DNA of 64,000 nucleotides, from the IMG/VR virus record IMGVR_UViG_2648501802_000002; one strand, 5' to 3'. Below are positions 25,004-58,455 of the stretch, one piece after another. The stretch is from a virus (Duplodnaviria; Heunggongvirae; Uroviricota; Caudoviricetes). Made by a program: the position numbers and the translations under genes. The notes beneath the pieces are model-generated. The model saw nothing but the letters and a program-made list of their open reading frames with translations. It made no database searches and was not told the DNA's origin. Each line of letters starts with the position of its first letter. The stretch's first letter is position 1.

Positions 25004-25088
25004 TTGATTGCTTGCCCGTTCCGGGCCTTTTGACATGTGACTTTCGTTACCCTCGCGTCAAAAAGAGTTTTTACGAAAGGAAGCATAA

Positions 25089-26282
25089 GTGACCTGGGAC
25101 GATCACAAGAAGAATTTTGCTCGCCTGGCGCGAGATGGTGGTTACACCATCGCACAGTATGCCGCCGAGTTTAATCTTAACCCTAATACCGCACGTCGTT
25201 ATCTCCGTGCCTTCAAAGAAGACACCAGGACTGCGGACAGCCGCAAGCCAAATAAGCCAGTCAGGAAGCCACTAAAAGGCATGATCATTGATCACTCTAA
25301 TGATCAACATGCAGGTGATCATATTGCGGCTGAAATAGCGGAAAAACAGAGAGTTAATGCCGTTGTCAGTGCCGCAGTCGAGAATGCGAAGCGCCAAAAT
25401 AAGCGCATAAATGATCGTTCAGATGATCATGACGTGATCACCCGCGCCCACCGGACCTTACGTGATCGCCTGGAACGCGACACCCTGGATGATGATGGTG
25501 AACGCTTTGAATTCGAAGCTGGCGATTACCTGATAGATAACGTTGAAGCGCGGAAGGCCGCGCGCGCTATGTTGCGTCGGTCCGGGGCCGATGTTCTGGA
25601 AACCACTCTTCTTGAAAAGTCTCTTTCTCATCTCCTTATGCTGGAGAACGCCAGGGATACGTGTATTCGTCTGGTGCAGGAAATGCGCGATCAGCAAAAA
25701 GACGATGATGAAGGGACTCCGCCTGAATATCGTATCGCGAGCATGCTAAACAGCTGTTCCGCGCAGATAAGCAGCCTGATCAACACCATTTACAGCATCC
25801 GGAATAACTATCGAAAAGAAAGCCGGGAGGCGGAAAAGCACGCTTTATCTATGGGGCAAGCTGGCATTGTTAAGCTGGCATACGAACGAAAGCGTGAAAA
25901 TAACTGGTCAGTGCTGGAAGCAGCTGAATTCATCGAGGCGCATGGCGGAAAAGTGCCGCCCCTGATGCTGGAGCAAATCAAAGCCGATCTGCGTGCTCCT
26001 AAGACCAATACCGATGATGAGGAAAGGCAAACAGCCGTCGGTGGCCCTTCTCTTGAAGATCTGGACAAAGTTGCGCGAGAACGGGCTGCCAACCGCCGCG
26101 CCGATGCCGCATTGTGGATTGAGCAGCGTAGGGAAGAAATCGCCGATATCGTTGATACAGGCGGTTATGGAGATGTTGATACTGAAGGTGTATCAAACGA
26201 CCCATGGCTGGAACAAGACCTGGACGAAGACGAGGAGGAAGACGAAGAAGTTACCCGCAAGCTATACGGGGATGATGATTAA
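25089..26282 (+). CDS. pacA: terminase small/pac-recognition subunit PacA
   Basis: 397-aa ORF containing the pac hexamer clusters; followed by pacB with overlapping stop/start. Confidence 0.75.
25282..25440 (+). other. pac site (packaging initiation): 4 + 3 TGATCA/G hexamers
   Basis: TGATCA at 25282, 25289, 25301, 25316; TGATCG/TGATCA at 25412, 25424, 25435; each holds a GATC. Confidence 0.8.
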
Positions 26283-27766
26283 TGGCCAGAAGTTGCGTAA
26301 CGGATCCACGTTGGCGCGAGCTGGTGGCGCTATATCGTTATGACTGGATTGCTGCCGCTGATGTTTTGTTCGGCAAAACACCTACCTGGCAGCAGGATCT
26401 GATTATTGAGTCTGTGCAGGAACAGGGTAGCAAGACATCTGTTTCGTCTGGTCACGGTACCGGGAAATCAGACATGACTTCTATCATGATCATGTTGTTC
26501 ATAATCATGTATCCCGGTGCCCGCGCCATTATCGTTGCGAACAAAATTCAGCAGGTAATGACCGGTATATTCAAGTACATCAAGATAAACTGGGCTACTG
26601 CCACCAGCCGTTTTCCATGGCTTGCTGATTATTTTGTTCTGACAGAAACCGCTTTCTATGAGGTTACTGGTAAAGGTGTATGGACTGTAGTACCGAAGGG
26701 CTTTCGTCTGGGAAGTGAAGAAGCTCTCGCCGGTGAACACGCAGATCATCTTCTGTATATTATCGATGAAGCCTCCGGTGTCAGTGATAGAGCTTTCGGT
26801 ATCATCACTGGTGCTCTTACCGGACAGGATAACCGCATCTTATTACTGTCACAGCCTACACGCCCAAGCGGCTATTTCTACGATACTCACCATAAACTGG
26901 CCAAGCGTCCTGGTAACCCTGATGGCGTTTATACGGCGATCACGCTTAACAGTGAGGAATCACCGCTGGTAACGCCAGCATTTATCAAAATGAAGCTGGC
27001 GGAGTACGGCGGGCGTGATAACCCTATGTACATGATTAAGGTACGCGGACTATTCCCTAAATCACAGGATGGCTTCCTTCTTGGACGTGATGAGGTTGAA
27101 CGTGCGACGCGGCGGAAAGTCAAGATTGCCAAAGGATGGGGCTGGCTTGCATGTGTGGACGTTGCTGGTGGTACAGGACGGGATAAGTCCGTTATCAATA
27201 TCATGATGGTGTCCGGCCAGCGAAATAAACGCCGTGTAATCAACTATCGAATGCTGGAATACACAGACGTTACAGAAACGCAGCTTGCCGCCAAAATTTT
27301 CGCAGAATGTAATCCTGAGCGATTCCCAAATATCACCATAGCGATAGACGGCGATGGGCTGGGTAAAGCAACGGCGGATCTGATGTACGAGTATTATGGT
27401 ATTACCGTACAGCGCATACGCTGGGGTAAAAAGATGCATAGCCGTGAAGATAAGAGCCTGTACTTTGATAAACGTGCTTATGCCAACGTTCAAGCCGCAG
27501 AGGCCGTAAAATCTGGTCGTATGAGACTGGATAAGGGTAATGAAACTATTGAGGAAGCGTCGAAAATCCCTGTAGGGATTAACTCCGCAGGTCAATGGAA
27601 GGTGATGAGTAAGGAGGATATGAAGAAAAAACTCAACCTGCACTCACCAGACCATTGGGATACATATTGTTTCGCTATGCTGGCGGATTATGTTCCCCAG
27701 GACGAAGTGCTTAGCGTCGAAGACGAAGCGCAGGTTGATGAAGCTCTGGCATGGCTTAATGAATGA
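26282..27766 (+). CDS. pacB: terminase large subunit PacB
   Basis: 494-aa ORF with Walker-A-like GHGTGKS. Confidence 0.75.
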
Positions 27767-27769
27767 ATA

Positions 27770-27786
27770 CTTGCTCTAATAAATTG
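27770..27786 (+). promoter_or_regulatory. C1-operator-like site (15/17)
   Basis: CTTGCTCTAATAAATTG, 4 nt after the pacB stop. Confidence 0.55.
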
Positions 27787-27917
27787 TGTTTTTTAACTGC
27801 CGATGTTACATTGAGCCTGACCTCTTGCGCCTTGAGGCATTTTCGGTTTATGCTTATCAGGCACCTCAGTAAAACGGGTGCCGGGATTGAGACCCCGGAT
27901 AATGCAAAAGGCGACAC

Positions 27918-27940
27918 AGACGCCAAAAGCGTCTTTTTTT
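27918..27940 (+). terminator. intrinsic terminator
   Basis: Stem AGACGC/GCGTCT, loop CAAAA, followed by T6. Confidence 0.55.
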
Positions 27941-28125
27941 GTGTCATGCCATCGCACAGCCATACGTAGCGTTTAGCTCAGAGATCAATGGTAGTGCTGG
28001 CTGGGCTGCCGAAAGGCAGGCCGGTTCCCTTTTGCGCCGGTAGTCTCAACCCAGTCAGTGCTACCGCCATTGAGATTGAGACCTCACGCGGTAGCTCCTT
28101 AAATTAGCAAAAGGAGGCTGCCATT

Positions 28126-28347
28126 GTGGCTACTATCCCTACCCCAGCTCATCCTGAATTTATCTGGCGCTTTTACTCCTGCCAAAAACGTCACTATCAC
28201 TTCGTTATTGCACCGACAGAAGATGAGGCACGTTCTCAGCTTCCGGATGCTCCCTGTATTTTCTCTGCCCGCTTTTCTACCGATTCGCGCAATTCTCTCA
28301 GTTACTGGTGCCTCCCTGTTAACGCTTCTGCTCAGGAGGGACTATGA
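28126..28347 (+). CDS. small protein upstream of and overlapping the antirepressor start (Icd-like position)
   Basis: 73-aa ORF with GTG start and AAAGGAGG RBS. Confidence 0.35.
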   Translation: MATIPTPAHPEFIWRFYSCQKRHYHFVIAPTEDEARSQLPDAPCIFSARFSTDSRNSLSYWCLPVNASAQEGL

Positions 28348-29446
28348 GAACGTCATTAGTCACCCGTGAAGAGATGATCGAGGCAATTGAACAGCACACT
28401 GCCTGTATCAGTACCAGGGATATACCGGGCGTTATTGCCAACTACTTCATGATCACCAAACAACTTTACCGGAGAAAGGACAAATACGCGGTTCACCGCA
28501 TTCTGCTAACCGATATCCGTGAATACCTGCTCGAACAGGGTCATCTGAATTACGCAACCGTCGCAGCCGAAGCACGCAAGGAGGCACACAGAATGAAAGC
28601 AACTAACGTTAAATCAGAAAAAATTTATGCACCTTCAGTTCAGGAATCGGAACTGGTGGTTGTTCAGAATCAGCCGGATGAAATTCCCGTTCTGGAATGG
28701 CAGGGAGTACGTGTCGTGACAACCGAAACTCTTGCTAGAGGGTATGGTGTCGATGAAGCCAATATTCGCAACAATTTGTCTCGCAACCTTGACCGCTTTG
28801 AAGAAGGTAAGCATTACTTTCTTCTAACTGGTTTAAAATTAAGAGAATTTAAGAACAGAGTAACCGGAAGTTACTCTGTTGGTAAGAACGCCAGAAGCCT
28901 TACACTCTGGACAGAGCGCGGCGCTGCACGCATGTCTAAGATCGTGGACACAAATGAAGCATGGGCATTCTTTGAAAAACTGGAAGACAGCTACTTCCGG
29001 CAAAAAGAACAGCAACCGGTTGCAATCCCCCAGACGCTTCCAGAAGCTCTGCGCCTGGCTGCCGAACTGGCTGAACAAAAGAACAGAAAGCCCACCAGCT
29101 AAATCAGCAGCTGGTGGCCGCCGCTCCTAAAGTCGATTTTGCCGACCGGGTATCAGTAGCTAAAGGGATCCTGATTGGGAATTTTGCAAAGGTTGTTGGA
29201 CTTAAGCAAAACGCGCTGTTTGCCTGGTTACGGGAGAACGGCATCCTGATAGCGTCCGGTGGACGTAAAAATGTGCCGTTCCAGCAGTACATCAATGCGG
29301 GGTATTTCACGGTGAAAGAAGTGGTGCTGGATGATGAAGATGGCTACCAGATACGGTTGACGCCTCAATTAACGGGTAAAGGCCAGCAGTGGTTGACGCG
29401 TAAACTGCTCGATGCTGGCTTGTTAAAACCGGTGGCGGCTGAATAA
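28344..29446 (+). pseudogene. antirepressor (N-terminal domain + KilA-C-like domain) split by a frameshift
   Basis: ORFs 28344..29102 and 29114..29446 in different frames; one extra A in the A4 run at 29077-29080 fuses them by hand into about 367 aa. Confidence 0.5.
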
Positions 29447-29478
29447 TGGAAGAATGCCCGGTTGATGCCGGGCATAAT

Positions 29479-30330
29479 TTATTGCGCGCTTTCGGGGTTG
29501 TCGTTTACTGGCTGCCCCTTCTTGGTTTTACGGCTGCGCGTAACTGATGCGGCTGACTTAACCTTTTTCTCTTCGCGAGTGATGGCAATTTGTTTTTTTA
29601 CATTTTCAATATCTGCCAGGCGATATATTTTTGCTTGCGGCCAGCGGTCGCAGATGATCGGTTCTATAGAGTCATAAAGGCTAAATTTTGCTTTCTCGAA
29701 TTCACCGTTGATGATGATTCCATCACGGAGAGTTTCATCGCAGATAAACACGCCACACAGCGGTACATGGTAACTAACTGATTTACCATCATTGTAGTTA
29801 GGGCTACTGGAGATGTAGTGGACGCGCAGCATTGTTTCGCTAAAGCCGTGTACACGCATACGGAATTTTTCATCCTCCGGGTACTGCCTCATTAGCTCTT
29901 TTGTTGCTTCCAGGTTCTCTATGTATTTCGCACTGTGCTCATTGATCCCCGCGCTTTTTTGGATGCGAATGTCCTTATCAATCAGATGAATAATGCGGCC
30001 AGCGGTCATGTTGACGCTGTTCACAGCTTCTGTCTGATAAGTTGTAACCTTGCGCACACCGCGAAGGATGTTAGGCACTGGATATAAAATAGTCTTTGGG
30101 ATATTGAGGTCTGGGTACTGTTCCAGTTCCCGCGCCATTAAAGTCCATTTATCAATTTCAGCCTGAATGCTGTCAGTTTCTTTGAACGGTAGAACGACAA
30201 CCGGGCGTACAGGACGACCGTCGCTGGCTGTATCAACGTGTTGGGCGCGTGCAACAGCTTTTTTTAGAAAGAGATCCCTGAAGCTGACGAACTCCTGGTA
30301 CAGTTGTTCGCCGTAGACATAATTTATCAT
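29479..30330 (-). CDS. c1: C1 repressor of lysogeny
   Basis: 283-aa ORF, size and N-terminus as remembered for P1 C1; coi directly upstream; operator-like sites flank the operon. Confidence 0.75.
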   Translation of the reverse strand: MINYVYGEQLYQEFVSFRDLFLKKAVARAQHVDTASDGRPVRPVVVLPFKETDSIQAEIDKWTLMARELEQYPDLNIPKTILYPVPNILRGVRKVTTYQTEAVNSVNMTAGRIIHLIDKDIRIQKSAGINEHSAKYIENLEATKELMRQYPEDEKFRMRVHGFSETMLRVHYISSSPNYNDGKSVSYHVPLCGVFICDETLRDGIIINGEFEKAKFSLYDSIEPIICDRWPQAKIYRLADIENVKKQIAITREEKKVKSAASVTRSRKTKKGQPVNDNPESAQ

Positions 30331-30423
30331 TGATCCTCCTCCAGAATTGACATGGTCAATAACGCCCGGCTGAGAAAACCGGTCATTACTGACCTATATT
30401 ATAGAGGGATCAAACAAAAATAA

Positions 30424-30440
30424 TAGATTTATTAGTGCAT
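30424..30440 (-). promoter_or_regulatory. C1-operator-like site (14/17) between coi and c1
   Basis: AGATTTATTAGTGCATT. Confidence 0.4.
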
Positions 30441-30650
30441 TTATTGTGAGTCCAACTGGTTAGTTGCCATGAGATATTCGATTGTGTCAGTGAGGTCATC
30501 CAGGTCGTCTTGGGTGATGCGGTACTCCTGATTGGATATCTTTGAGTAGTGTTCAGCAATGGCGCGGGCAGCGTCGGTTTCGGCAGGGTCTACAGATAAA
30601 GCGTTAGAGCAATGTCTAACGTCGTCGATGGTTGGTTGAATGAAAGCCAT
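30441..30650 (-). CDS. coi: C1 inactivator Coi
   Basis: 69-aa ORF immediately upstream of c1 on the same strand. Confidence 0.65.
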   Translation of the reverse strand: MAFIQPTIDDVRHCSNALSVDPAETDAARAIAEHYSKISNQEYRITQDDLDDLTDTIEYLMATNQLDSQ

Positions 30651-30888
30651 AATTATGCCTCACTGTATTGACAACACAGAGCCTGAAGCTCTGACCTACT
30701 GTTTCACCCATGATCCATGCTGGGGTAATCTAACAACATTGCGCTGTGTGTAAGATGAGCAATGCATAGCTGTAATGCCGTTGTATAAGGTTTCCCTGTT
30801 TGCTCATTTCCTTCTGAGCCGCTCTACAACGCTGAAGACACATTAAATAGTGAATCCAAAGTCGTATTACGAAACGGCGGCAAAACTA

Positions 30889-30905
30889 TAATTTATTAGA
30901 GCAAT
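30889..30905 (-). promoter_or_regulatory. C1 operator (16/17) upstream of coi-c1
   Basis: TAATTTATTAGAGCAAT. Confidence 0.6.
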
Positions 30906-30959
30906 TGTCAAACAACTATGAAAAACAATCCAGTTTTTGTTTGATATTTATGGTGACAT

Positions 30960-31271
30960 ATGAGAAAGGATTTCAACATCGACGGAAAATATGTAGTGCT
31001 GTCTGTAAGCACTAATATTCAGTCGCCAGCCGTCATTGTCACTGTAAAGCTGAGCGATAGAATGCCTGATATTGACTCAATATCCGTTGCGTTCCCTGTC
31101 AAAAGTATGCGTGGTGCTGAACATTTCGTGATGAATGCCACCGAGGAAGAAGCACGGCGCGGTTTTGCTAAAGTAGTGTCTGACTTTGGCGAACTCTTGG
31201 ATAAGGTTAACAATGTCCTTTCAATCAGTTCAGCAAGGTCCAAAGCGTTAACAGCTTCCATGATGAAATAA
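30960..31271 (+). CDS. hypothetical protein
   Basis: 103-aa ORF. Confidence 0.3.
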   Translation: MRKDFNIDGKYVVLSVSTNIQSPAVIVTVKLSDRMPDIDSISVAFPVKSMRGAEHFVMNATEEEARRGFAKVVSDFGELLDKVNNVLSISSARSKALTASMMK

Positions 31272-31398
31272 AAAAAGCCTGGCAAGGAACCAGGCTGCAC
31301 AAAAGAGCGGGTTTGTGTTCCGCATCCAATCAATCAGAAAGGAGTATAGCACATAGATACTAAAGTGAAAAAATGTGACTGAAGATAAACAATATAAC

Positions 31399-31415
31399 AT
31401 TGCTCTAATTGATTG
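31399..31415 (+). promoter_or_regulatory. C1-operator-like site (14/17)
   Basis: ATTGCTCTAATTGATTG. Confidence 0.4.
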
Positions 31416-31619
31416 TTATAATTGAGCCGTGGCGTTAGTCAACTACGAAGACGTGGCCATTACCTACTTAACCAGTTCCGCCAGGGCAGCAGAGTAGGTT
31501 TCATCTCGGATGTACCATGCCTGCATGTTTTCCAGAGAAGCCCGCGAGGTTCCCGGACAGGACTCTGCCATTGCGATAGATTAAATGCAATAACCTAAAA
31601 GCGATAACGTGGTGGAAAA

Positions 31620-32259
31620 ATGTTCATCAGAGCTTATTTAAGGGCATCAACGGAAGATCAGTTTGCCGATCGGGCAAAAGAGATGCTGGGGCAGTTTGTT
31701 CAGGAGCGGGGACATAAAATAGCCAGTTACTACCGGGAGAACATAAGCGGTACAAAACTCGACCGCCGGAACTGGGACGCTTACTGATGGACAGCCACCG
31801 CAATGATATTTTACTGGTCGAGCAAATTGACCGCCTGACCCGTCTGAGTAACAGTGACTGGATTACGCTGAAAAAGCAGATAGAACAACACGAACTGCGG
31901 ATTGTCGCCTGGATGTATCCACCTCATGGCAGGCGCTGTCAGATAAAGACCCTTCGCAGGCTGACCCAATCACCCGCGCCGTGATAACCGCCATCAATAA
32001 CATGCTTATCGACCTGATGGCCGCGATGTCGCATAAGGACTGGCTGAGCCGTCGCCAACGGCAACAACAGGGAATTGAACGGGCTCATACGCTGGGTAAA
32101 TACCGGGGATAACAGGCCGATCAGGAACGGCATCAGAAAGTCCTGTACTACTGGCAGGTCAAGAAACTAAGTATCCATGAAACGGCAGATGCGACAGGGT
32201 ACAGTCCTTCACAGATATGCCGCATTCAAGCCCTTTATAGAGAGCCTGAATCGGAATAA
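31620..32259 (+). pseudogene. serine recombinase (resolvase/invertase family), decayed
   Basis: Starts MFIRAYLRASTEDQ (catalytic Ser motif); two single-base losses in C-runs (about 31762 and 31908) and an in-frame TAA before the C-terminal HTH. Confidence 0.6.
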
Positions 32260-32365: not shown

Positions 32366-32767
32366 TCAGGCTGACAACTGTCGGAGGATATCCGCTGTAT
32401 TATAATGAGCCCGTTTTTCTATATATTTCCCGTCTTTCAGAGTGATCATAAACATCAGAGAAAAGCGCACTTTCCTGCCGCTGGCAGGATGCCCAAGGAA
32501 TTCACGGGTCTGCACGCCTTCAAAGATAAGATAGCAGGCGACTTTATCGTCTCTGGCAAAGATTTCGTGGATACGCATTGTAAATCCCGGAAAAGCATCC
32601 ATATGGCCTTTTTCCTGTACGATAAACTGCTCACTGTTCAGCGGTGTATCCACCTGAGAATAGAATTTAAAATCCGGATGGCAGAGGTTTTTCACCTCAT
32701 CATATTTATTTTCTTCAATCAGACGATAAAACTTTTTAACCGTTTTGATATTTTCTTAAACAGACAT
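32366..32767 (-). pseudogene. SnoaL-like / NTF2-fold protein with premature stop at codon 4
   Basis: GAGGTG RBS then ATG TCT GTT TAA (stop at 32756-32758), frame stays open into the annotated ORF from GTG at 32695. Confidence 0.5.
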
Positions 32768-32775
32768 ATTGCACC

Positions 32776-33765
32776 TCATTTTTCAGTTTCTTTACCTGCC
32801 GGAATATTGCCTTCCGGCGTTCCGTTAAATGTTTTTCGCCATTCACTGGGACTGACTCCCATCCGCTGCCGGAATATCTGCCGGAAAGTAATGGTGGACT
32901 GAAAGCCTGCCAGTTCGGCAACCCGCTCCACTGCAATATCTGTACTTTCCAGCAGTTCCTGACTCCGCCGGAGACGCTCTGTGGTGATCCACTCCCAGAC
33001 CGTCATTCCTGTGGCCGAATGAAAATGGCGTGTAAGCGTTCTTCGGCTCATGGAGGCTAAATGGGCCAGAGTGTCAATATCATGTGGTAATCCCAGATTT
33101 GCGGACAGGTATTCCAGCAGCTGGTTTATGCGGTTATCGGACGTACTTTTGGGAATAAGCAGTTGCCGGTACTGTGCCTGTCCGCCTTCCCGGTAAGGAG
33201 GAGCAACCATCCGGCGGGCTATTTGATTAGCCGTATATCTGCCCAGGCGTTGCCGGATCACATGGAGACAACAGTCCAGTGCTGCGGCTGTACCGGCTGA
33301 GGTGATAATCCGCTCGTCCTCAACATAAAGCACGTTCACGTCCAGATGAACCGCCGGGAAAAGCATCTGGAAATCCCGTTCAGCCTCCCAGTGCGTGGCC
33401 GCCCGTTTACCATCCAGCAGACCGGTGTAAGCCAGAACAAAACTCCCCAGGCACAGGCCCACCACCTGAGCTCCATTTTTCCAGGCTGCAACCAGGGCAC
33501 TGAGCAGAGTTTCAGAAGGCCTTTCATGGATGTGTTTCCAGAAAGGAATAATAACGATATCGGCCTCTGCCAGTGCATCAAGCCCGTATTCTGCCCTCAT
33601 CGCCGTACCTTCAGCAGACCAGATAAGCCCGGGCTCTTCCGCACATACCCGGCGGCTGAAGAGGGCCTTCCCTTCCAGTATCTCCCCGAACAGGATTAAT
33701 GGAACGGAGACATGAAATGTACTGAACCCTTCGGTGATCACTATAGCGACAGTGATGGTGGACAT
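32776..33765 (-). CDS. GlxA-like transcriptional regulator (DJ-1/PfpI domain + AraC HTH)
   Basis: 329-aa ORF; N-terminal DJ-1-like region and C-terminal AraC-type HTH. Confidence 0.6.
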   Translation of the reverse strand: MSTITVAIVITEGFSTFHVSVPLILFGEILEGKALFSRRVCAEEPGLIWSAEGTAMRAEYGLDALAEADIVIIPFWKHIHERPSETLLSALVAAWKNGAQVVGLCLGSFVLAYTGLLDGKRAATHWEAERDFQMLFPAVHLDVNVLYVEDERIITSAGTAAALDCCLHVIRQRLGRYTANQIARRMVAPPYREGGQAQYRQLLIPKSTSDNRINQLLEYLSANLGLPHDIDTLAHLASMSRRTLTRHFHSATGMTVWEWITTERLRRSQELLESTDIAVERVAELAGFQSTITFRQIFRQRMGVSPSEWRKTFNGTPEGNIPAGKETEK

Positions 33766-33780
33766 GCCATGGCCTCCGGG

Positions 33781-34557
33781 TTAAATCGTAACTGATTCAC
33801 CATCAGCAGGAGCGACAACTGACGCCTGGATCTGGTTATCGCGGGCATATTCCAGCAGTTCCTGACGGGTCAGCAGACAGTGGTTTACGGCCTCCATGTG
33901 CGTTGCCACAATCAGTGCCTCTGGTACGATACGATGGGCTTTCAGGACATCTTCCCTGCCGAAAATAATGGGGCCGAATCCGAGAACATGCGCCCAGCCC
34001 GTATTCATAATAACGACGCCAGGATTGAACCGACGTAAATTATCCTCTACAGCCTTGATCCAGATGGTATCCCCAACCAGATAGAGCGTTTTTTCGGACG
34101 GATGCTGGAAGACCACCCCACAGGCATCCCCAAGAATTGCTGCGAGTTGCGGGTTAGCATAGGCTTCGTCCGAACCATGCTGACAAACGGTTTTAATAAG
34201 TGAAATTTCGCCAAATGTGCTTTTGTCAGACAGAATAACAAGGTTGCTGAAGCCCTGGGAACGCAGGATCTTTTCATCATGTTCATTCTGAACATAAATC
34301 AGTTTATCTTTCGGGATGTGCGCAACAGCCGCTTCATCCCAGTGGTCAGGGTGTGTGTGGGTGACAATAATGGCATCCACATCCAGCAGTACATCAAGGT
34401 CAAAAGGCAGCTCAGTCATCGGGATGCGGATATCTGACCGGGCCGTTCCTTCGAATCCCGGATAGGCTTCTTTTTTCGCAAGCATCGGATCGACAAGAAA
34501 TTTTTTACCAGCGTAAGAAATGAGTTGTGTGGCGTTACGTACCTGGATGATCTTCAT
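33781..34557 (-). CDS. MBL-fold metallo-hydrolase
   Basis: 258-aa ORF with THTHPDHWD (HxHxDH metal-binding motif). Confidence 0.6.
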   Translation of the reverse strand: MKIIQVRNATQLISYAGKKFLVDPMLAKKEAYPGFEGTARSDIRIPMTELPFDLDVLLDVDAIIVTHTHPDHWDEAAVAHIPKDKLIYVQNEHDEKILRSQGFSNLVILSDKSTFGEISLIKTVCQHGSDEAYANPQLAAILGDACGVVFQHPSEKTLYLVGDTIWIKAVEDNLRRFNPGVVIMNTGWAHVLGFGPIIFGREDVLKAHRIVPEALIVATHMEAVNHCLLTRQELLEYARDNQIQASVVAPADGESVTI

Positions 34558-35240: not shown

Positions 35241-35996
35241 ATGGATCCCTTTTCAAATATTCCATGGACGGCACAGTCTGAGTACCGGGCGCTACCTTCT
35301 GTTGTATTGCTAAGCCGCCGCTGGTGGCTTTTCTTTTTTATAGGGGGCGATATGGATAAGAAAATATGCGTTGTTTCGATGAGCGTCGGTAAACCGGCGT
35401 CAATGACTGCTGCATGGATCAACAACGAGCTGATAATGGCTGAGCGGACCAGCTACCCTGAACGCCGCCGCGATATGGAACTCCAGCTGCTGCGCGAATT
35501 GCGAGAAAAAGAGGAAAAGGGTTTTATCGTGCTGGTGGAAGAGGAAAACAGCTTTATTACCGGTCGAGTTGGCCAGCGTGTAAGGTTGCGCGATCCCTTC
35601 ATGAACGGCAGGCCGGTACTAATTGAAGCAATGCAGATTTACAAGGAGCTGGAACGCCAGAAAGCGATCAAGTTACCGCGCAAGGAATCCGGCAAATACA
35701 TCCTCCACCAAAGCATCTTCGATTCCGAACACGATAAAAAAGGCGATGAGTTTTTCAACATCAACTGGAGCGAAATAACGACAGAGCATGTTCTGACGTT
35801 GTTATGCTGCTTCGCAACAGAATACAACAACGTGGTAAGCGCAGACTACATCAGGACAATGACAGACACCGTTACTAAACAAGACAACGAATATTCACCA
35901 TATGAGCCATTTGTAAATATGATAAAAGCATTTTATCGGATGGAGCTCGCTAAAGTTCCTCAAGGTAAATTAACAGGTAAGGATAACATCTTTTAA
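35241..35996 (+). CDS. hypothetical protein (Mat-like position)
   Basis: 251-aa ORF, probable start at internal MDKKICVV. Confidence 0.3.
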   Translation: MDPFSNIPWTAQSEYRALPSVVLLSRRWWLFFFIGGDMDKKICVVSMSVGKPASMTAAWINNELIMAERTSYPERRRDMELQLLRELREKEEKGFIVLVEEENSFITGRVGQRVRLRDPFMNGRPVLIEAMQIYKELERQKAIKLPRKESGKYILHQSIFDSEHDKKGDEFFNINWSEITTEHVLTLLCCFATEYNNVVSADYIRTMTDTVTKQDNEYSPYEPFVNMIKAFYRMELAKVPQGKLTGKDNIF

Positions 35997-36049
35997 GCAC
36001 AGTAATGAGGTGCTTAGATGTTAATATCAATATCCTAACTCTCTGCATC

Positions 36050-36739
36050 TCATAAATCTGATAGCCACTTACTATCTATGGACTCAATCTCCGTCAGCGG
36101 AATTGATGGGAAAAAATATCCCTGAGCGCCCCATAGCCCTATTCCTTTTGATAACTTATGACAATCAATGTTTTCGACGCCTTCAGCGATGATATTCGGA
36201 CATAACTTTTTTAAATTGCTAATAATGACATCAAAATGAGGCTTAATCATATGCTCTTGAAAAAATGACTTATCAAGTTTTATTGCATGGTATTTATTTT
36301 TAATTAATGCTTTCATGGTGGCGTTACCACTTCCAAAATCATCAAGCCAAACATAGTCTGTCAAAGTCAGGAGAAAGGGTATAACGTAATCCTCATCGCT
36401 TAAATCAGGGTAGTTTTCTGATATCTCAAGAACTATAAATTTATTGTTTTTAATTAACTCTTGAGTTTGTTTATTACTGTATATATATATACATGTATCA
36501 TAATCTACATTAATAGAACATAGTATATTATGGCGTTCAAAAAAACACTTGTATTTCATTATTGTGTTAAGTTGTGATTTAAGTAAATTAATCTTCATCT
36601 TATTGGTAAACATACCCAATACTCTTTGAGTAGGAAGAGCGACACCATCTTTGGAGCGAAATCTGCTTAACACTTCTACTGCAATCAACTTGTTCGTGCT
36701 CGTAGAAATGATTGGTTCTGCAATGTAGATAACTTCCAT
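36050..36739 (-). CDS. EAL-domain protein (c-di-GMP phosphodiesterase-like)
   Basis: 229-aa ORF with EVLSRF, DDFGSG, KLDKSF and AQGYFF motifs; AT-rich. Confidence 0.6.
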   Translation of the reverse strand: MEVIYIAEPIISTSTNKLIAVEVLSRFRSKDGVALPTQRVLGMFTNKMKINLLKSQLNTIMKYKCFFERHNILCSINVDYDTCIYIYSNKQTQELIKNNKFIVLEISENYPDLSDEDYVIPFLLTLTDYVWLDDFGSGNATMKALIKNKYHAIKLDKSFFQEHMIKPHFDVIISNLKKLCPNIIAEGVENIDCHKLSKGIGLWGAQGYFFPSIPLTEIESIDSKWLSDL

Positions 36740-36975
36740 ATCCCCACCCTCAAGTTTTAAATTGCTTGATTTTGCTCAGATAACGAGCCCCCTATATTTA
36801 CAAGAGTTACACTCTACTTTTGTAGATTAAATGTCAATTTATTTGTTTGTGATAATATTGAAAAATATCAATTAAAACAATCAAAAAATGTGACATAAAT
36901 CAATAATTTTATTTTTACACAACTTCTTGATTTCTGAGCCTAGCTATCTCTATTCTTATTCAAAGCCTCTTTAGA

Positions 36976-37710
36976 ATGGTGGTGGCCATGTCAGCAGTTT
37001 GTTACTTCATACTCATAAAGAAACCTATAAGCTTTCAATTTCTTAAGGATTTCTTAATATTAAATTATGGTGATGTGTTGTTGCTTAAGCATTCTGAGCA
37101 TGAATGCTTAAAAATCTATTCAGACAAATATATAGAATTCGAACTCAATGATAATACCGTAAGAAACTATTTATCATGCAACAACAACCATGGAAACCAA
37201 TCGCTGGATAAGTGTCCGCATTTGCTAAAAAAGTCTTTTGCCTATCCTGATTTATTAATCAGGATGATCGATAATATAAGCGATCAAAATCATATCCATT
37301 CTGATTTTAGGGAGGCAGTAACTTTTTCATTACTCTCAATTTTTAATGATGTTGATAACTTTAGAGCATTTCTTACGTCTGGTATGCCCACTTTCTCAGG
37401 GAAAGTGCGCAGCATATTTCTTTCAGATGTATCTAAACACTGGAAACTAAGAGACCTAACCGATTATCTCTACATGAGTGAAAGCTTAATAAAGAAAAAA
37501 CTATTATTGGAAAACACCTCCTTCAGTAAGTTATTACTTGATACACGGATGGCTTTTGCTATTAAATTACTAAAGCAAAATCATCCAGTCAAACAAGTAT
37601 CAGAAAGCTGTGGCTTTAGTAGTACATCGTACTTTGTGTGCCTGTTCAGGCAATATTATAATTGCACGCCACGTGAATATGCAAAACATCAATTATTATC
37701 TGGAAAATAA
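36976..37710 (+). CDS. AraC-family transcriptional regulator
   Basis: 244-aa ORF with C-terminal AraC HTH; AT-rich, divergent from the EAL gene. Confidence 0.6.
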   Translation: MVVAMSAVCYFILIKKPISFQFLKDFLILNYGDVLLLKHSEHECLKIYSDKYIEFELNDNTVRNYLSCNNNHGNQSLDKCPHLLKKSFAYPDLLIRMIDNISDQNHIHSDFREAVTFSLLSIFNDVDNFRAFLTSGMPTFSGKVRSIFLSDVSKHWKLRDLTDYLYMSESLIKKKLLLENTSFSKLLLDTRMAFAIKLLKQNHPVKQVSESCGFSSTSYFVCLFRQYYNCTPREYAKHQLLSGK

Positions 37711-37748
37711 GATGCATTTATCTCCCAGATAATATTGTAATATTAAAC

Positions 37749-37997
37749 TCAGTCAGCATTTAGTAGCAGAGCATTATCTATGATGATCTGCTCCCATTCT
37801 TCGAATGCCCGGTCACGGACGCCCTGGGGAACACTGTTTGTTTTGAAATCAACGACTGTCCGCCATTTCCCGTCCGGACGGTACATGCGCAGAGCTTTAC
37901 TTCCCCCTTCCCTACGCACCTCAACGTTATGCTTGTCAGCAAACTCTTGTAATGCTCGTAGCGTCCCATGCTTTACTGTGTAGTATCGCTTTTTCAA
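37749..37997 (-). CDS. small protein, last gene of the DarB-like operon (Lxc-like position)
   Basis: 82-aa ORF, 4-nt overlap with the upstream gene. Confidence 0.3.
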   Translation of the reverse strand: MKKRYYTVKHGTLRALQEFADKHNVEVRREGGSKALRMYRPDGKWRTVVDFKTNSVPQGVRDRAFEEWEQIIIDNALLLNAD

Positions 37998-38434
37998 GTT
38001 TTCTCTCCAGCCTGTGCCAAGGCTTCAACTTCCAAATCGTAAGACTCAAACTCATAGTCCTGGTCGTCAACTTCTTCAGGCACTGGCAGTAAATGCCAGG
38101 CTGAGTATATCTGACCATTATCAAAACGCTCCTGGCTGTAGAGCGTCGCAGCTATGAGCGTCAGCGCCGGGCGGTCATAACGGTAAATTTTGCGAACGTC
38201 ACGGTCAACGAGACGACCGAAATTACCATAACCGCGCTCCAGTAATAATTTTTTAATTTCCGGCCAGTATGGGCCATAGCTGCGGTACAGGCGGGGATTT
38301 TTCAGTAATCGCCCGCGTAGCCCTGACAGGAAGAAATCAACGTATTCGTCTTCTGTCTTTCCTAACAACGCTGTACGGAGTACCGCCTCAAGATATGTTT
38401 TATTCGGTTTTATTGTATCAGATAGTGTGGCCAT
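37994..38434 (-). CDS. hypothetical protein downstream of DarB-like gene (Ulx-like position)
   Basis: 146-aa ORF. Confidence 0.3.
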   Translation of the reverse strand: MATLSDTIKPNKTYLEAVLRTALLGKTEDEYVDFFLSGLRGRLLKNPRLYRSYGPYWPEIKKLLLERGYGNFGRLVDRDVRKIYRYDRPALTLIAATLYSQERFDNGQIYSAWHLLPVPEEVDDQDYEFESYDLEVEALAQAGEKT

Positions 38435-38467
38435 ATTATGCGACGCCCGGCGAACCGGGCGCTCCTG

Positions 38468-41400
38468 TTATGCGTATTGTTGGATGACGGCCAGAACGTC
38501 CGCCACGTTGTGTTTTGTCTCGATAATCCACCAGTTACCCGGGAAATCGCTGTTCTTCGCCTTCGCTGGCAGCCAGCGAGCGCCGAATTTCGCCTTGATT
38601 GCGTCTTTCGCACGGAAAAGAACGCCTTTCATGCCTGAGGCTTCCTGAAGCCCAAATACCTCGCCAGCGGCGAATTTTGGTGCGTACATCATCTTCAGGT
38701 CGGCGGTGGATACGCGATAATTCAGACCTAGAGACTGAGCTATGCTGGTGGCATCACCCTGTATTGATGATAACTCTTCTTGTTTCTCGTTTCTGGCGGC
38801 AATCTCTTCCTCCGTGATGTTGCCAAGGGCCAGGTTTATCCGATCAGCGTCGGCCTGTTTCTCTTCATCGGTGCGCCCGGCAAGAACCGTGTTAATTCTC
38901 TGCAATATCTCCACATGATTCTTGCGCATGCTGAGCAATTCCGGCGTAACCTCGTTAAGATCCACCAGCCCAAGGATGGCAAGGTCGGAAAACATTGATA
39001 CCAGGTTGTAGGTCATGCGATAGCTGAGTTGACCATAGGCTGATGGCAACTTCACCGCATCCATTTGATAGGCATCCATAAATTTAGAGCCGTCGTTTAC
39101 GACATCCGCTATTGCAGGTGTGATTTTCCCTGTGGTGGCGGCCTCCCTGATTGCTGTTACCCACGATTGAGTCAGCGCGGCGACTGCATGATTCAGATTG
39201 GCTTCCCGTTCTGCTGCGATGCGCGCGCTTGCTGCGTCCATTGCCTGCTTGATCTCGGCTTTATTGCTGTAAATGCCAATGGTGCCAAACTGTGCTGTGG
39301 TGATCTCATAATCTGACGCCCGGAACTCATTGGTACCGAAAATGGCATTGGTGACTTCAAGTTCAGAATCCCCGTTACGAGTAGCCCCCTGGCTTGTTTT
39401 TTCCGGCATTCTGGCGATCGCATCCGCTATTTTCTCCTGAATTGCTTCAGGGGATAGCGTATCTCCGTATGACGCGATTACATCGCCATAATTGGAGCCA
39501 AACAATTCAACCAGGAATGTTTCTGCCGAACGGATCTGGCGGTTATTCCCTTCCGACATCATACCAAGCACCCATTTTGCAATTGACGACTTCAGCGCGA
39601 CGTCACGGCGATCCGGGTAAACCGCATGCTTCAGTGGGTCCGTATAGGTACCAACAAAATCAATGCTATAGCCTGACTCTGTAGTCTGAACGCCGTATGA
39701 GTCAGTGATTTTGATCATGCCGCGCTGCTGGAAACGGTAGAAATCGTCACAGGAAATGATGTCGTTAATCCCGGCGATGGAGACGCCGCCACTGATTTTC
39801 TGCATAACAGCATCTTCATCGGGAGTTACATCAACCTGTTTATCCAGCGTCTTCACATCCCAGTTACCCGATTTGGTACCTTTGAAGGTAAAGATAATCT
39901 CCACGTCTGCGCGCAGGCTGTCGAAGTCCAGCGACTTAATGCGAACGATATCACCGGCACAATCGTAGTATTGGCCTACACGCCATGAGCGATCGCCGAT
40001 AATAAGGAACTCACTCGCATGGTTAACCAGGTCAGGATCAACATCCAGAATGCCTTTATTTATTGCATCCTCCACCAGCGGGCGCAGGCGTTTGATATCC
40101 GTCGCGGCCTTCTGAGTACGGTTCAATAATTTCTCATAGCGGGAGATGGCTTGAGAGATATTAGCCTTGCGCTGAATGGCGCTTTTCAACGACGCGCGAT
40201 ACTGTGCTAACAACGTACGGTCTGTGTGATGGACGCTACCCCAGCGGGCTTTCCAGTCTGCGTTATCAGCTGCTTTGGCCATTACCGCCTGTTTGAATTT
40301 GGCGACGTCGGCGGTGGTCTTTTCAAGTTCCGCTTTGCTTCGCTCTAATTCAGCGGTAAGCACCTCCACATCCTCACCAGCTGCGTGCTGCGCCTTGATG
40401 TAGTTCTGAAGGTCGATAGTAGCCTGTTCTTTCTGGCGAGCGCGTTGCGCGGCTTTCGCCTTATCCATTTGAACCTGCATCATTGCCAGACGTTCGCCAT
40501 CATCCTTAGCGGTATACATCTGCATTTCGATCATATCGTTGGCGTCGGCGTTCTCCATTTCTGACTTATCTGAACGGAGGATATCGGAGATCCAACCTGC
40601 TTTACGCTTCAGCGTCTTCAGTCGGTATTCATCGAAAGAACCCTTGCCGCAGTAGTAGTGAACGCGAACGCTTGCACGGTTGGAACCAACTCGGGCACCG
40701 CGACCGTTACGCTGTGCGATACTGGCTGGTGTCCATGGCAACGTCAGATGATGGATGTCAGTCGTTCCTCGATGCAGGTTGATACCCACCTCTGCCTTTT
40801 TGTTGCAGATGATGATCGGAGTCCGGCCCTCCTGGAAGTCGGCTGCAATCTTTTCCAGACCGCCCAACGACATTTCATTTTGCTGCGCGATATAGGCGTC
40901 ATACAGAGCTATTTGCTCGTTGTATTTCGCTATCTGTGCATCTGTTGGTTCATCCGGTAACTCTTTCGGCGGTTTAACCGCTTTCAGTTTCTTACCGGTT
41001 TTACCTGCCTCGGCAACCGTCTGAGCATTCAGGATCCCCACCTTTGAAGGTTCAAGGTTAAGAGCATTGCAGATAATGCGCTTGAGCTTCTGGTGTTGCG
41101 TTTTTTTCATCGGTGAAGATGATTTGCTTACCTTCTGGGAAAAACTCCTTCAGCGTGGCAATCAGCTTCGCGTATTTGGGCGTAACGGGGTGAGTTACGG
41201 TCTGTTCGTCAATGCCAAACTTGGCCAGGCGCTTATTCACTTCCTGCTCAAATGCTTCCGGTACCTGCAACTGAATAAACTCGCCCTTATCTATCAGGGA
41301 GTATTGCGATTGCTGCGTGATTGAATCATCACTGTCGTCGTCTTCGCTGGTGGCTTGTTTGGGCAAACTGTCCGCCAGCTGCTGCACCGCATCGGCGTAC

Positions 41401-43287
41401 TCCGGCAGGAAACGATAGGTGATCCGGCGATAGTACAGGTCCATGTCAGTACATACGCGGTCCATATCCCTGATTATTGAGAAGATCGGACGGGCTTTCT
41501 CGTGCTCAATCACGCCGTCTTCATTGACCGAGGTCATTACGCCATTGTTGGCTTTGGCCGCCGCTTCCGCCTGCTGACGCAATTCTTCATACGCCGCCAG
41601 TTGTTCTTCAGTAAGTGGTGCATCCTGCTGGTGTTCGTCCAGCTCCGGGATCTCCACGGTATCCTTAACGTCTTCCGCCGTTTTAAGCGTTACCCAGCGA
41701 TGGAATATACCGCGCAGCGCATCAACCCGACAATTTCGCTATAGGACCGCGACCAGGATTACCAAAGCGGTCAATCTCTGCCTGCAAACGGGATACCAGA
41801 GAAAGGCGCTGCTGTTCGATTTGTTCAGCACTATGCCCGGCGGCCTTCATATCCTGATATTCAATTAACATCCGGCCAATCATCGCCCCGCGATACAAGC
41901 GTTCACGGTATTTTTCAGGCTGGCTGTTAATCCAGTCCACCAGCTGCACCATATCGTCGCTGATTGATGTGGTGTACTTATCGCGGACATTTGCCATCTG
42001 GGTAAATGTCATGCCGAGACGGCCTTCTGTTGTAGTCAGGTTACGCTGAAGAGCCTCCCAGCTATCCGCGCCATAACTGGCAGCATCGATCTTAAGTTCC
42101 TTCCCGGCATCAGCTTCAATCCAGCGACCACCAGCATATTTTTGCCATACGCCATTAATCAGGCGCATTTCCCCTTCACCAACAACGTCTGCGGTCGGTG
42201 ACGGTTCAGCCATATCGAGCAAAGACCAGTCGATACGGCTTTCGAAACGATGAATCAGCTTCGCTTTAAGAGCCTGGTTATCAATCTGACCGTCGGCACG
42301 AACCTCAATACGCCCCTGGAAGCCCTTTTCCTGGGTGCCATGAACAAACCGGCGGCCATCCTTTTCAAACCACTTGCCAGAAATAAACGTTGGCCAAAGC
42401 ACATTTGCCGATTCAAGAGTGCTTTCATCCACCAGGGGGATTTTCTCAGCCATCTCTGCCGGATGTTTGCGCATCAGCACCACATCAACGACTGTACTGG
42501 TCCCGTTTGCGTCAAAAGTACCGGTAGGCAAGCGGTGAGCGCCAAGAAATTCAGCTTTACGGGATAAGCGCAGGCGTAACCGCTTCATGTTTGAACCTGA
42601 AACAATGGACGGCGGCACAATCACGCACATGAATCCGCCTGGCTTTATCTTGTCCAGCATGCGGAGCATGAAGTAAGAACCCATGTCCGTTTCTTCTGCG
42701 TAAGGCTTATCGATGTTGCGTGTGTTATCACGACCGCCGAACGGAACGTTACCCACAACATGGTCGAATGAATCGTTAGGCGTGCTTATAGCCAGCTGTT
42801 CGAACGGGGAAATCTGTACGCTGTCTTCCGGGTGTAACAACTGGTTTATACGACCGGAAACACTGCTGATCTCAGTCGCGGTCATCACCGTACCAACCGG
42901 TTTTGTCTCATTAAAAACGCCGGTTCCCGCCGATGGTTCCAGAGTGTTACCTACGTCCGCGCCGTAGAGCTTCATGATCTCCCAGACACCTTCAGCGATC
43001 GGCTTTGGTGTGTAATATTCGGAGACGGACCCGCCAATGCCGCCTTCACCGGTGTACCCAGCCAGGATCTGGCGCTGTTCATCTGTCAGTGTCGCGCCGT
43101 CCACCAGCGAATTAAGCAAATCTATCGCCTTCTGATTCGCCTCCCGGCGCAGTCGGTCATAGCTTTTGCCTTCCACCTTTTCCACGCCGTATTTAATCGG
43201 CGCTCGGTGAGATGTTATTGCCCTAATGTATTTCAATATTTCGCTGACACTTGAACAGCAAAACACCCCCATAAATAGCTTGTTCAT
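38468..43287 (-). pseudogene. DarB-like N6-adenine methyltransferase + helicase-C fusion gene, in three ORFs
   Basis: ORF 41722..43287 has methyltransferase motifs (EPSAGTGVF, GNVPFG); ORFs 41058..41657 and 38468..41110 carry helicase C-domain motifs (KQIIFTDE; AQRNGRGAR); junctions at an A7 tract (41101-41107) and a 1-nt shift near 41722-41738. Confidence 0.55.
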
Positions 43288-43353
43288 TGGTAATCCTTAA
43301 CAAGTGACTAGTGTTAAATTCCGTTCAAACACGATGCGAATTATTCTAATTAA

Positions 43354-45084
<1,731 letters not shown>

Positions 45085-57620: not shown

Positions 57621-58455
57621 GTGCGCCCAGCATGGGCGCGATCTTGGAGGTGAAAGCCCTCCCGCGAGCTGACCACAGCGAGCGAAAGGAAGTGCAACTG
57701 CGTGAGGGCGGCTAGGCGTGGGGAGGAAGCACGGAATGAACCCGTGAGCCGATGAACAAGAATCGGATATGAGGCGCGATGGAGCAAGGCGAGCAGGCAC
57801 ATCACTGCGAAGCTTTCGTGACAAAGTCGCGTAGATCCGACGGTTGTGCGGGGAAGGATCGCGTTCTTACCTGGGGAGTTCTCGCCTCATGCCTGAAAGG
57901 GCAACGTCGTAAGACGGAGCGAGAAGTCAGCAGAGGCCGTAGTAGTCAGGACTCCGACGAAGGGCCGAACGAGAAGGAAAGCCAAAAGATATGACTCTTG
58001 ACAGGACATTGCGTCAGAAGCCGGGGAAGCCCGGTACGGACCCGCATGCCGGGTGGTGTGGCAGGGGCGCAGCCTTGTGCTCCCCCCTATGCCGATCAAG
58101 CAGAACATTGTGCTGGGCCTCTGACGCATCTCCTTGATGGTCTTGGCATCGTGCTTAAGTGGATTGGTGTCGTCTCTGATAGGCTCATGGAGGCAGAATG
58201 AAACTCAAAAATCCGGGACAGCACGCAAAACAGGCTGCACAAAAAGCGCAGGTTGCGTAGGAGTGGAATCCCGCTCCCAAAAAATGGTGCAGAAGTTGCG
58301 GCAGTGGTCATCCGACGCACTGGAAAATAACAAACCCGCCGTGACCAGAATCGGAGGCCTGAGGGAGTGACCGTAAAACCGGATAACCCAGGCAGCAAAT
58401 ACCCGCTGGATGAGGCATGGTTCCGGCAGATAATACCGAAAACCGCCAGACACAC
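57621..58455 (+). ncRNA. group II intron 5' segment, ORF-less or 3'-truncated
   Basis: Begins GTGCGCCCAG (GUGYG 5' consensus); GC-rich with no long ORF; ends at an abrupt drop to AT-rich sequence; no domain V identified. Confidence 0.55.

Follow-up and report, generated by a model that had tools for sequence, protein, structure and literature searches.

A 64 kb stretch of DNA (hereafter, the window) belongs to a P1-like phage-plasmid in which the end of pacB and the end of c1 lie unusually far from each other in comparison with P1: 1,712 bp separate the two stop codons in the window (27767–29478), as against 24 bp in P1. The questions that this locus raises are what the additional DNA encodes, how it may be controlled, and whether its antirepressor gene is still able to work. 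The neighboring features in the window are as follows.

25089–26282, plus strand: pacA
26282–27766, plus strand: pacB
29454–29475, no strand assigned: hairpin between the convergent genes ant and c1, likely a two-way terminator
29479–30330, minus strand: c1
30441–30650, minus strand: coi

The insert between pacB and c1 holds a predicted C1 operator, a leader small RNA (sRNA) of the IsrK family, a C4 antisense RNA, and the genes icd and ant. The original prediction of an Icd/Ant antirepressor module adjoining the c1-coi operon, made from the letters of the window alone, is thus supported. We consider it very probable, from comparison with characterized systems, that the insert represents a second, complete immI-type operon gated by C4, with the ant gene inactivated in this copy by a 10-bp deletion.

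The c4-icd-ant region of P1 is located elsewhere in the genome, as had been stated, at 48.1–49.7 kb between sim and kilA. The implication that a position between pacB and c1 is unusual did not survive a search of sequenced plasmids. Using the 1.85 kb around the module as query and counting a match when at least 80% of the query length was covered, we found 308 matching plasmids in PLSDB, mostly at 95–99% identity and always between pacB and c1. The phages JL22, RCS47 and vB_EcoM-673R5 also match the query at this same position, and pTZ20_1P carries a pacB-c1 module as well. RCS47, JL22, pTZ20_1P and about 300 P1-like plasmids are 95–99% identical to the window over the 1.85 kb and have an intact ant of 370–371 aa; many P1-like plasmids, RCS47 and JL22 have annotated copies of the module at 98–99% identity. 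Venturini et al. mentioned an insertion between pacB and c1 in print, naming RCS47 (PMC6906374). Because the module occurs there in hundreds of plasmids and has appeared in a publication, its placement is a documented and frequent variant of the P1 backbone. A literature search for the double immI arrangement found no dedicated paper, only passing mentions of the pacB-c1 insertion. In the relatives, the NCBI pipeline places a 370-aa ‘phage antirepressor Ant / KilAC domain protein’ directly after an ‘Icd-like protein’.

The P1 record annotates Oc4/Op51, P51a, P51b, a1, b1, c4, a2, b2, icd, ant1 and ant2. Alignment to the immI region of P1, part of a check that had been suggested, places a counterpart of every one of these P1 elements in the window in identical order, with the C1 operator at the same place. 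The first part of the module is composed of the following elements.

27770–27786, plus strand: C1 operator-like site CTTGCTCTAATAAATTG, directly 3′ of the pacB stop codon, matching the consensus ATTGCTCTAATAAATTT at 15 of 17 positions
27784–27812, plus strand: putative weak promoter (TTGTGT, 17 nt, TACATT) at the P51a/P2c4 position, overlapping the operator and proposed by positional homology to the annotated P1 P2c4
27825–27854, plus strand: putative leader-sRNA promoter (TTGCGC, 18 nt, TATGCT) at the P51b/PisrK position, which would start transcription near 27861
27861–27941, plus strand: IsrK-family leader sRNA (Rfam RF01394) with two 5′ hairpins, single-stranded b1 and an intrinsic terminator
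27887–27893, plus strand: site a1, UUGAGAC, in the loop of the second leader hairpin
27904–27911, plus strand: site b1, GCAAAAGG, single-stranded in the leader

The operator-like site, already noticed in the original prediction, aligns with the annotated Oc4/Op51 of P1. Sites of this kind with at most two mismatches occur eight times in the 64 kb window, compared with about 0.01 expected by chance according to our calculation. We describe 27770–27786 as a predicted C1 operator at the operon promoter that looks like the counterpart of P1 Oc4/Op51. The downstream promoter candidate aligns with the TTGACT, 17 nt, TATATT of lambdoid copies and with P1c4 of P1. A consensus promoter scan called neither of the two candidates, so both are proposed here from positional homology.

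The leader matches the Rfam isrK model at 27861–27939 with 58.2 bits against a gathering score of 50, and also gives a weak, sub-threshold match of 22 bits to c4-a1b1 (RF03163), the family of the P1 immI leader. The terminator that had been proposed is confirmed, with a hairpin at 27918–27934 and a T-run reaching 27940, and icd and ant come after it in the same orientation. In its predicted fold, the leader has two hairpins at the 5′ end, then unpaired sequence and the terminator, and the folding energy of the leader RNA is indistinguishable from that of shuffled sequence (z = −1.6). Support for this RNA comes from its Rfam score and from the covariation described below, not from thermodynamics. 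A point of difference from the immI of P1 and P7 is that the a1/b1 leader here is of the IsrK type and has a clear intrinsic terminator.

The presence of a small terminated RNA bears on a further part of the original prediction, in which the transcript of 27787–27940 would itself be a c4-like repressor that pairs with the ribosome-binding region at 28100–28130. A small RNA with its own terminator does lie just upstream of icd, and to that extent the proposal of a regulatory RNA was correct. The role assigned to it is almost certainly wrong. The leader contains GCAAAAGG and UUGAGAC in the same sense as the ribosome-binding region, and therefore cannot pair with that region; its partner is instead a C4 RNA that scores above the Rfam gathering score and is encoded further downstream. 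The direction of complementarity thus rules out the upstream RNA as C4, and the leader is an IsrK-family target RNA carrying a1 and b1. The C4 RNA and its sites in the icd leader are listed here.

27984–28071, plus strand: C4 antisense RNA (Rfam RF01695, 75 bits against a gathering score of 45)
28028–28035, plus strand: C4 segment b′, CCUUUUGC, in the loop of the second hairpin
28043–28049, plus strand: C4 segment a′, GUCUCAA, in a single-stranded junction
28076–28082, plus strand: target site a2, UUGAGAC, in the icd leader, exact complement of a′
28107–28114, plus strand: target site b2, GCAAAAGG, exact complement of b′, overlapping the icd Shine-Dalgarno sequence AAGGAGG at 28110–28116

The C4 RNA, which begins 45 nt beyond the leader RNA, was overlooked in the original prediction, and it is C4 that is complementary to 28107–28114. 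Exact complements of a′ (7 nt) and b′ (8 nt) are found both upstream and downstream of C4. The two segments have the lengths of those in P1, and the C4 fold and the location of b2 on the icd Shine-Dalgarno sequence are as in the immI regions of P1 and P7.

We assessed these pairings across related loci. A pattern built from the conserved icd start recovered 120 stretches from IMG/VR; with fetched phage loci included, 129 isrK-C4 leaders were available for comparison. All 129 have, at the expected position in C4, an 8-mer that can pair with b2, and 128 of them have a matching b1. A script tallied 26 combinations of a and b in the 129 loci, a figure that includes some combinations, the window's type among them, for which the automatic call placed the a site one base off and detected no a1. 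Covariation was measured on an alignment of 54 distinct sequences. Pairing between a′ and a2 is preserved in 98.7% of cells, with six of the seven pairs changing on both sides, and pairing between b′ and b2 in 100%, with four of eight pairs doing so. The stems of C4 are 99.6–100% paired and include 15 covarying pairs, while a1-a′ and b1-b′ are paired at 99.2% and 99.8%, respectively, with compensatory changes. When the partner was slid by one to three columns as a control, pairing fell to 27–51%, and none of the shuffles matched the observed covariation. This is strong comparative evidence for the prediction that C4 recognizes the icd ribosome-binding site as well as the leader RNA. The isrK-C4 tandem is not restricted to antirepressor operons of this type, as many lambdoid phages, Stx phages among them, have it upstream of a Rha-type regulator, and both RNAs are already annotated in some of these records.

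The same covariation is relevant to an improbable reading of this stretch, that 27984–28107 encodes a small 39-aa ‘Ash family’ protein instead of, or besides, the C4 RNA. The 39-aa open reading frame does match the Pfam family Phage_ASH (PF10554) with 29.1 bits against a cut-off of 26, in a partial alignment covering profile positions 49–87. In addition, relatives have an ‘ash family protein’ called at this place by the NCBI pipeline PGAP, and in Gifsy-1 a small gene downstream of IsrK, orf45, is translated (PMC4825925). However, the two-sided changes at 15 pairs of the almost invariably paired C4 stems form a pattern that fits an RNA, not a protein, and the ATG at 27988 has no Shine-Dalgarno sequence. 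In phiP27 L16, moreover, the ‘Ash’ domain is nothing but an isrK-C4 leader that is translated in one frame with the Rha gene behind it. The 39-aa frame on the covarying C4 RNA is probably spurious.

Downstream of the C4 gene and its target sites lie the two protein-coding parts of the module.

28126–28347, plus strand: icd-like gene of 73 aa with a GTG start, sharing 81% identity with P1 Icd (NF033153, 49.8 bits)
28344–29102, plus strand: 5′ part of ant, 245 native and 7 frameshifted residues, with an ORF6N domain (PF10543, 1.3e-18)
28593, plus strand: Ant2-like in-frame ATG start, with its own Shine-Dalgarno sequence at 28578–28584 and a conserved KEAHRM motif
29080–29081, plus strand: site of a 10-bp deletion, GCAGCTTCTG missing in alignment with three relatives, which frameshifts ant after codon 245
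29081–29446, plus strand: 3′ remnant of ant with a KilAC domain (PF03374, 4.3e-31), with over 90% identity to the C-terminal end of P1 Ant

The icd-like gene corresponds to the 73-aa frame with a strong ribosome-binding site overlapping the next start that had been pointed out beforehand: AAGGAGG precedes its start, and its stop codon overlaps the ant start in an ATGA. Both the ATGA overlap and the level of identity in Icd are shared with the P1/P7 immI comparison, and the gene is annotated as Icd-like in relatives. From the overlap we infer that translation of icd and ant is coupled.

As had also been noted, the antirepressor is in two pieces, one with the ORF6N domain (28344–29102) and the other with the KilAC domain (29114–29446), the latter an open reading frame of 110 aa with a GTG start and no Shine-Dalgarno sequence. 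These pieces are one gene that has been split, as proposed, given that relatives carry a single 370-aa frame; none of them was found to conserve the two parts as separate genes. The intact Ant of the relatives is 57% identical to P1 Ant1 and retains the nested Ant2 start, and the intact nested ant1/ant2 with KilAC that relatives have is lacking in the window, where the nested start is kept but the 10-bp deletion separates the KilAC domain. Like the nested start, the KilAC C-terminus is a point of agreement with P1/P7 immI, and at the DNA level the final third of ant shares 83% identity with P1 ant. In contrast, the middle of the protein consists of the ORF6N domain, which P1 Ant1 lacks, and the middle thirds of the two proteins are unrelated. 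The frameshift in ant is a further difference from P1 and P7.

The cause of the break is different from the one originally suggested, which placed the split at the A4 run at 29077–29080. In the alignment with three relatives, these read GAACAAAA-GCAGCTTCTG-GAACAGAAAG where the window reads GAACAAAA-GAACAGAAAG, and this is the sole difference in length. The gap follows position 29080 cleanly, and the A4 run is the same in the window and in its relatives, which dismisses slippage in that run as the cause. It is true, as had been calculated, that one A added at 29077–29080 yields a 367-aa frame, because ten bases amount to a shift of one frame. Restoring the 10 bp in silico gives a frame of 370 aa as in the relatives, more than 300 of which have an intact gene of that length.

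The possibility that the break stems from an error in sequencing or assembly, or from an A-run prone to slippage, such that the living element makes a full-length antirepressor, was weighed against the distribution of the junction. Besides the effect of a single added A, the rarity of the allele speaks for such an error: the deleted junction occurs in none of the 332 PLSDB plasmids that cover the site and is absent from IMG/VR, GTDB representative genomes and JGI metagenomes, and an exact-sequence lookup of the truncated Ant protein found no record of it. Among 5,426 complete Escherichia coli genomes, however, the identical junction is present in one, ST2747 (NZ_CP007394.1), where PGAP flags ant as a ‘frameshifted’ pseudogene. 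ST2747 is 99.98% identical to the window over 25030–29456 (4.4 kb) and lacks two stretches of it, 29457–32107 and 35246–45014; with two indels of several kilobases between them, the two sequences are separate assemblies of the same lineage. The gap itself is a clean 10 bp in non-repetitive sequence relative to every relative, with no change in homopolymer length. We thus regard an artefact or slippage as very unlikely.

Equally in need of consideration is a functional split, in which Ant1/Ant2 shortened to an ORF6N fragment and a 110-aa KilAC fragment translated on its own would act as two proteins. Both Pfam domains are whole on either side of the break, and the GTG at 29114 sits 12 nt past the stop codon at 29100–29102, making re-initiation conceivable. 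Yet no Shine-Dalgarno sequence precedes 29114, hundreds of relatives keep a single frame while none encodes the parts separately, and the allele occurs only within one lineage, where PGAP calls a pseudogene. Two working proteins are therefore highly improbable in our view, and the ant of the window is most likely a lineage-specific pseudogene that has lost its KilAC domain. The operator, the RNAs and icd look intact in the window. The ant of vB_EcoM-673R5 is also broken, by a 1-bp gap at another site; since its c1 is in pieces too, we do not count it as independent evidence of recurrent inactivation.

How such an operon would work can be proposed by homology to P1 immI and to the IsrK system of Gifsy-1. 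In P1, C4 blocks the ribosome-binding site of icd, ant needs the translation of icd, and Ant1/Ant2 inactivate the C1 repressor (PMC8546580; P1 record annotation). In Gifsy-1 (isrK, orf45/STnc1160, anrP; Hershko-Shalev et al. 2016, PMC4825925), short IsrK targets the read-through mRNA in trans and so turns on a small upstream ORF and the antirepressor coupled to it. The authors of that study likened IsrK to seqA of P4 and the stable downstream RNA STnc1160 to P4 CI. The module resembles Gifsy-1 in having a self-terminated IsrK-family sRNA that would be partly read through into an antirepressor operon, a C4/CI-like RNA (stable in Gifsy-1) just downstream of it, and antirepressor expression tied to translation of a short upstream ORF. 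It differs in that the coupled upstream ORF is an Icd homologue and the promoter carries a predicted P1 C1 operator.

Transcription would start at the promoter overlapped by the C1 operator, and probably also at the second promoter just upstream of 27861. Most transcripts are expected to end at the terminator (27918–27940), giving an IsrK-family sRNA of about 80 nt with a1 and b1, while read-through transcripts would carry C4, then a2 and b2, then icd and ant. The a′ and b′ segments of C4 would pair with a2 and b2, and because b2 covers the icd Shine-Dalgarno sequence, icd would go untranslated. Because the ATGA overlap is predicted to tie ant expression to the translation of icd, as Rho polarity also does in P1, no antirepressor would be made. 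The leader sRNA, with the same a and b sequences, could compete as a C4 target and relieve the repression, upon which Ant1 and Ant2 would bind and inactivate the C1 repressor. The published IsrK model is a switch between alternative mRNA structures, in which titration of C4 is only discussed, for STnc1160 (PMC4825925); the decoy role that we suggest for the leader is therefore a reading of the complementarity. Hfq binding and activation in trans of downstream translation by IsrK have been reported for Gifsy-1 only (PMC4825925). In the relatives, with their intact gene, it is the ORF6N-containing Ant1/Ant2 that would inactivate C1.

The recognition sequences set the module apart from the immI regions already known. 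The window uses UUGAGAC and GCAAAAGG, whereas in P1 a is UUGACAG and b is GUUAGUG(A/C), and elements of the P7 type have GAUUGUG as b. Since the a and b sequences differ from those of both P1 and P7, the switch would be independent of the canonical immI of its relatives. The window ends short of the region where a canonical immI would be expected, and the two can be compared in JL22, which has a canonical P7-type immI (C4, a1b1 leader, icd and ant1) at 43.4–44.9 kb in addition to the pacB-c1 module at 96.2–98.1 kb. The two C4 RNAs have entirely different b sequences and two differences among the seven positions of a, and thus should not cross-react. By comparison, the b sequences of P1 and P7 differ by only two bases, and this two-base difference suffices for heteroimmunity.

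Three b types are found at the pacB-c1 position: GCAAAAGG in the window and JL22, GUCAAAGG in RCS47, and GUCUAAGG in vB_EcoM-673R5, where a differs too. Each type has matching changes in b1, b′ and b2. At least three C4 specificities at this position, all distinct from the P1 and P7 codes that the canonical immI has in the same genomes, may be previously unreported. Phage D6 has an isrK-C4-icd 5′ region that is 96–97% identical to that of the window, with the same a/b specificity. In D6, however, a Rha-type regulator (orf82) follows in place of an ORF6N-KilAC Ant, and the immI-like region is located between orf84-86 (downstream of ref) and pmgF instead of between pacB and c1. From these sequence comparisons, the module appears to be a mosaic in origin, with a D6-like 5′ part, a P1-like ant end and an ORF6N middle.

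A broader proposal, possible in our opinion and at the same time doubtful, is that the pacB-c1 position is a hot spot for an independent second immI switch whose C4/IsrK code is swapped between lineages, with the allele of the window serving as an ‘immunity-only’ cassette. If this were true, P1-like phage-plasmids would gain combinatorial heteroimmunity, and an allele with a dead ant but intact C4, IsrK and icd would still keep the cognate antirepressor of an incoming relative shut off, yet could not trigger induction of its own prophage.

Taken at its more secure level, the locus is a known system at a known position, already annotated in databases, and the copy in the window has decayed. A proper annotation of the region would comprise an isrK-type leader RNA, a C4 RNA, icd and an ant pseudogene, and labeling the C4 gene an ‘ash family protein’ is probably a mistake. 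The copy in the window has little importance beyond correct annotation. Of somewhat wider value is that many P1-like phage-plasmids have two C4-gated antirepressor operons with different codes, which could shape their coexistence or mutual induction; this trait belongs to the whole group and is not special to the window.

The C4 RNA gene is overlaid, at window 27988-28107, by a match to the Pfam family Phage_ASH (PF10554) and by a PGAP call of an ‘ash family protein’. In phage phiP27, we found that the ‘Ash’ domain of L16 is a translation of the isrK-C4 leader that runs in frame into the Rha gene (compare L008:1451-2110). RNA genes may form part of the basis of the Ash protein family.

The P1-like segment of the window, with its 10-bp ant deletion, is also present in the E. 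coli ST2747 ‘chromosome’ record (L004, NZ_CP007394.1 2147966-2156065), where it lacks c1-coi (window 29457-32107) as well as window 35246-45014. This chromosomal placement could reflect either integration or misassembly; the region is also found on chromosomes in further complete genomes. The ant gene of the relative vB_EcoM-673R5, a phage (L010:2122-3260, the locus from that phage), is likewise interrupted, in its case by a 1-bp gap at a site different from the deletion in the window. Since c1 of vB_EcoM-673R5 is annotated in three pieces, the record may simply hold sequencing errors.

Several other features were observed along the phage-plasmid. Three tRNA genes (window 1119-1269 and 2797-2869) are in line with a P1-like genome, and group II intron domains were identified within the element at window 57702-57965 (RF02001, 95.5 bits; RF01998, 46.8 bits). 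Three short ORFs at window 31620-32170 are pieces of one broken serine recombinase, a copy of which in a relative is likewise annotated as ‘frameshifted; internal stop’. The immunity region is adjoined by cargo genes, named here by annotation in relatives:

Window 32366-34500: ester cyclase, GlxA-family regulator and MBL-fold hydrolase

Using the close plasmid pE102651_87 as the reference for the difference at window 30937-30939, we found that cra and cre lie on 1,595 bp of this plasmid that are absent from the window at that junction (compare L131:4451-6045, the sequence compared there). A search of the entire 64 kb of the window detected neither cre homology nor a loxP arm. In a P1-like element without Cre/lox, the system for dimer resolution and cyclisation would be gone.
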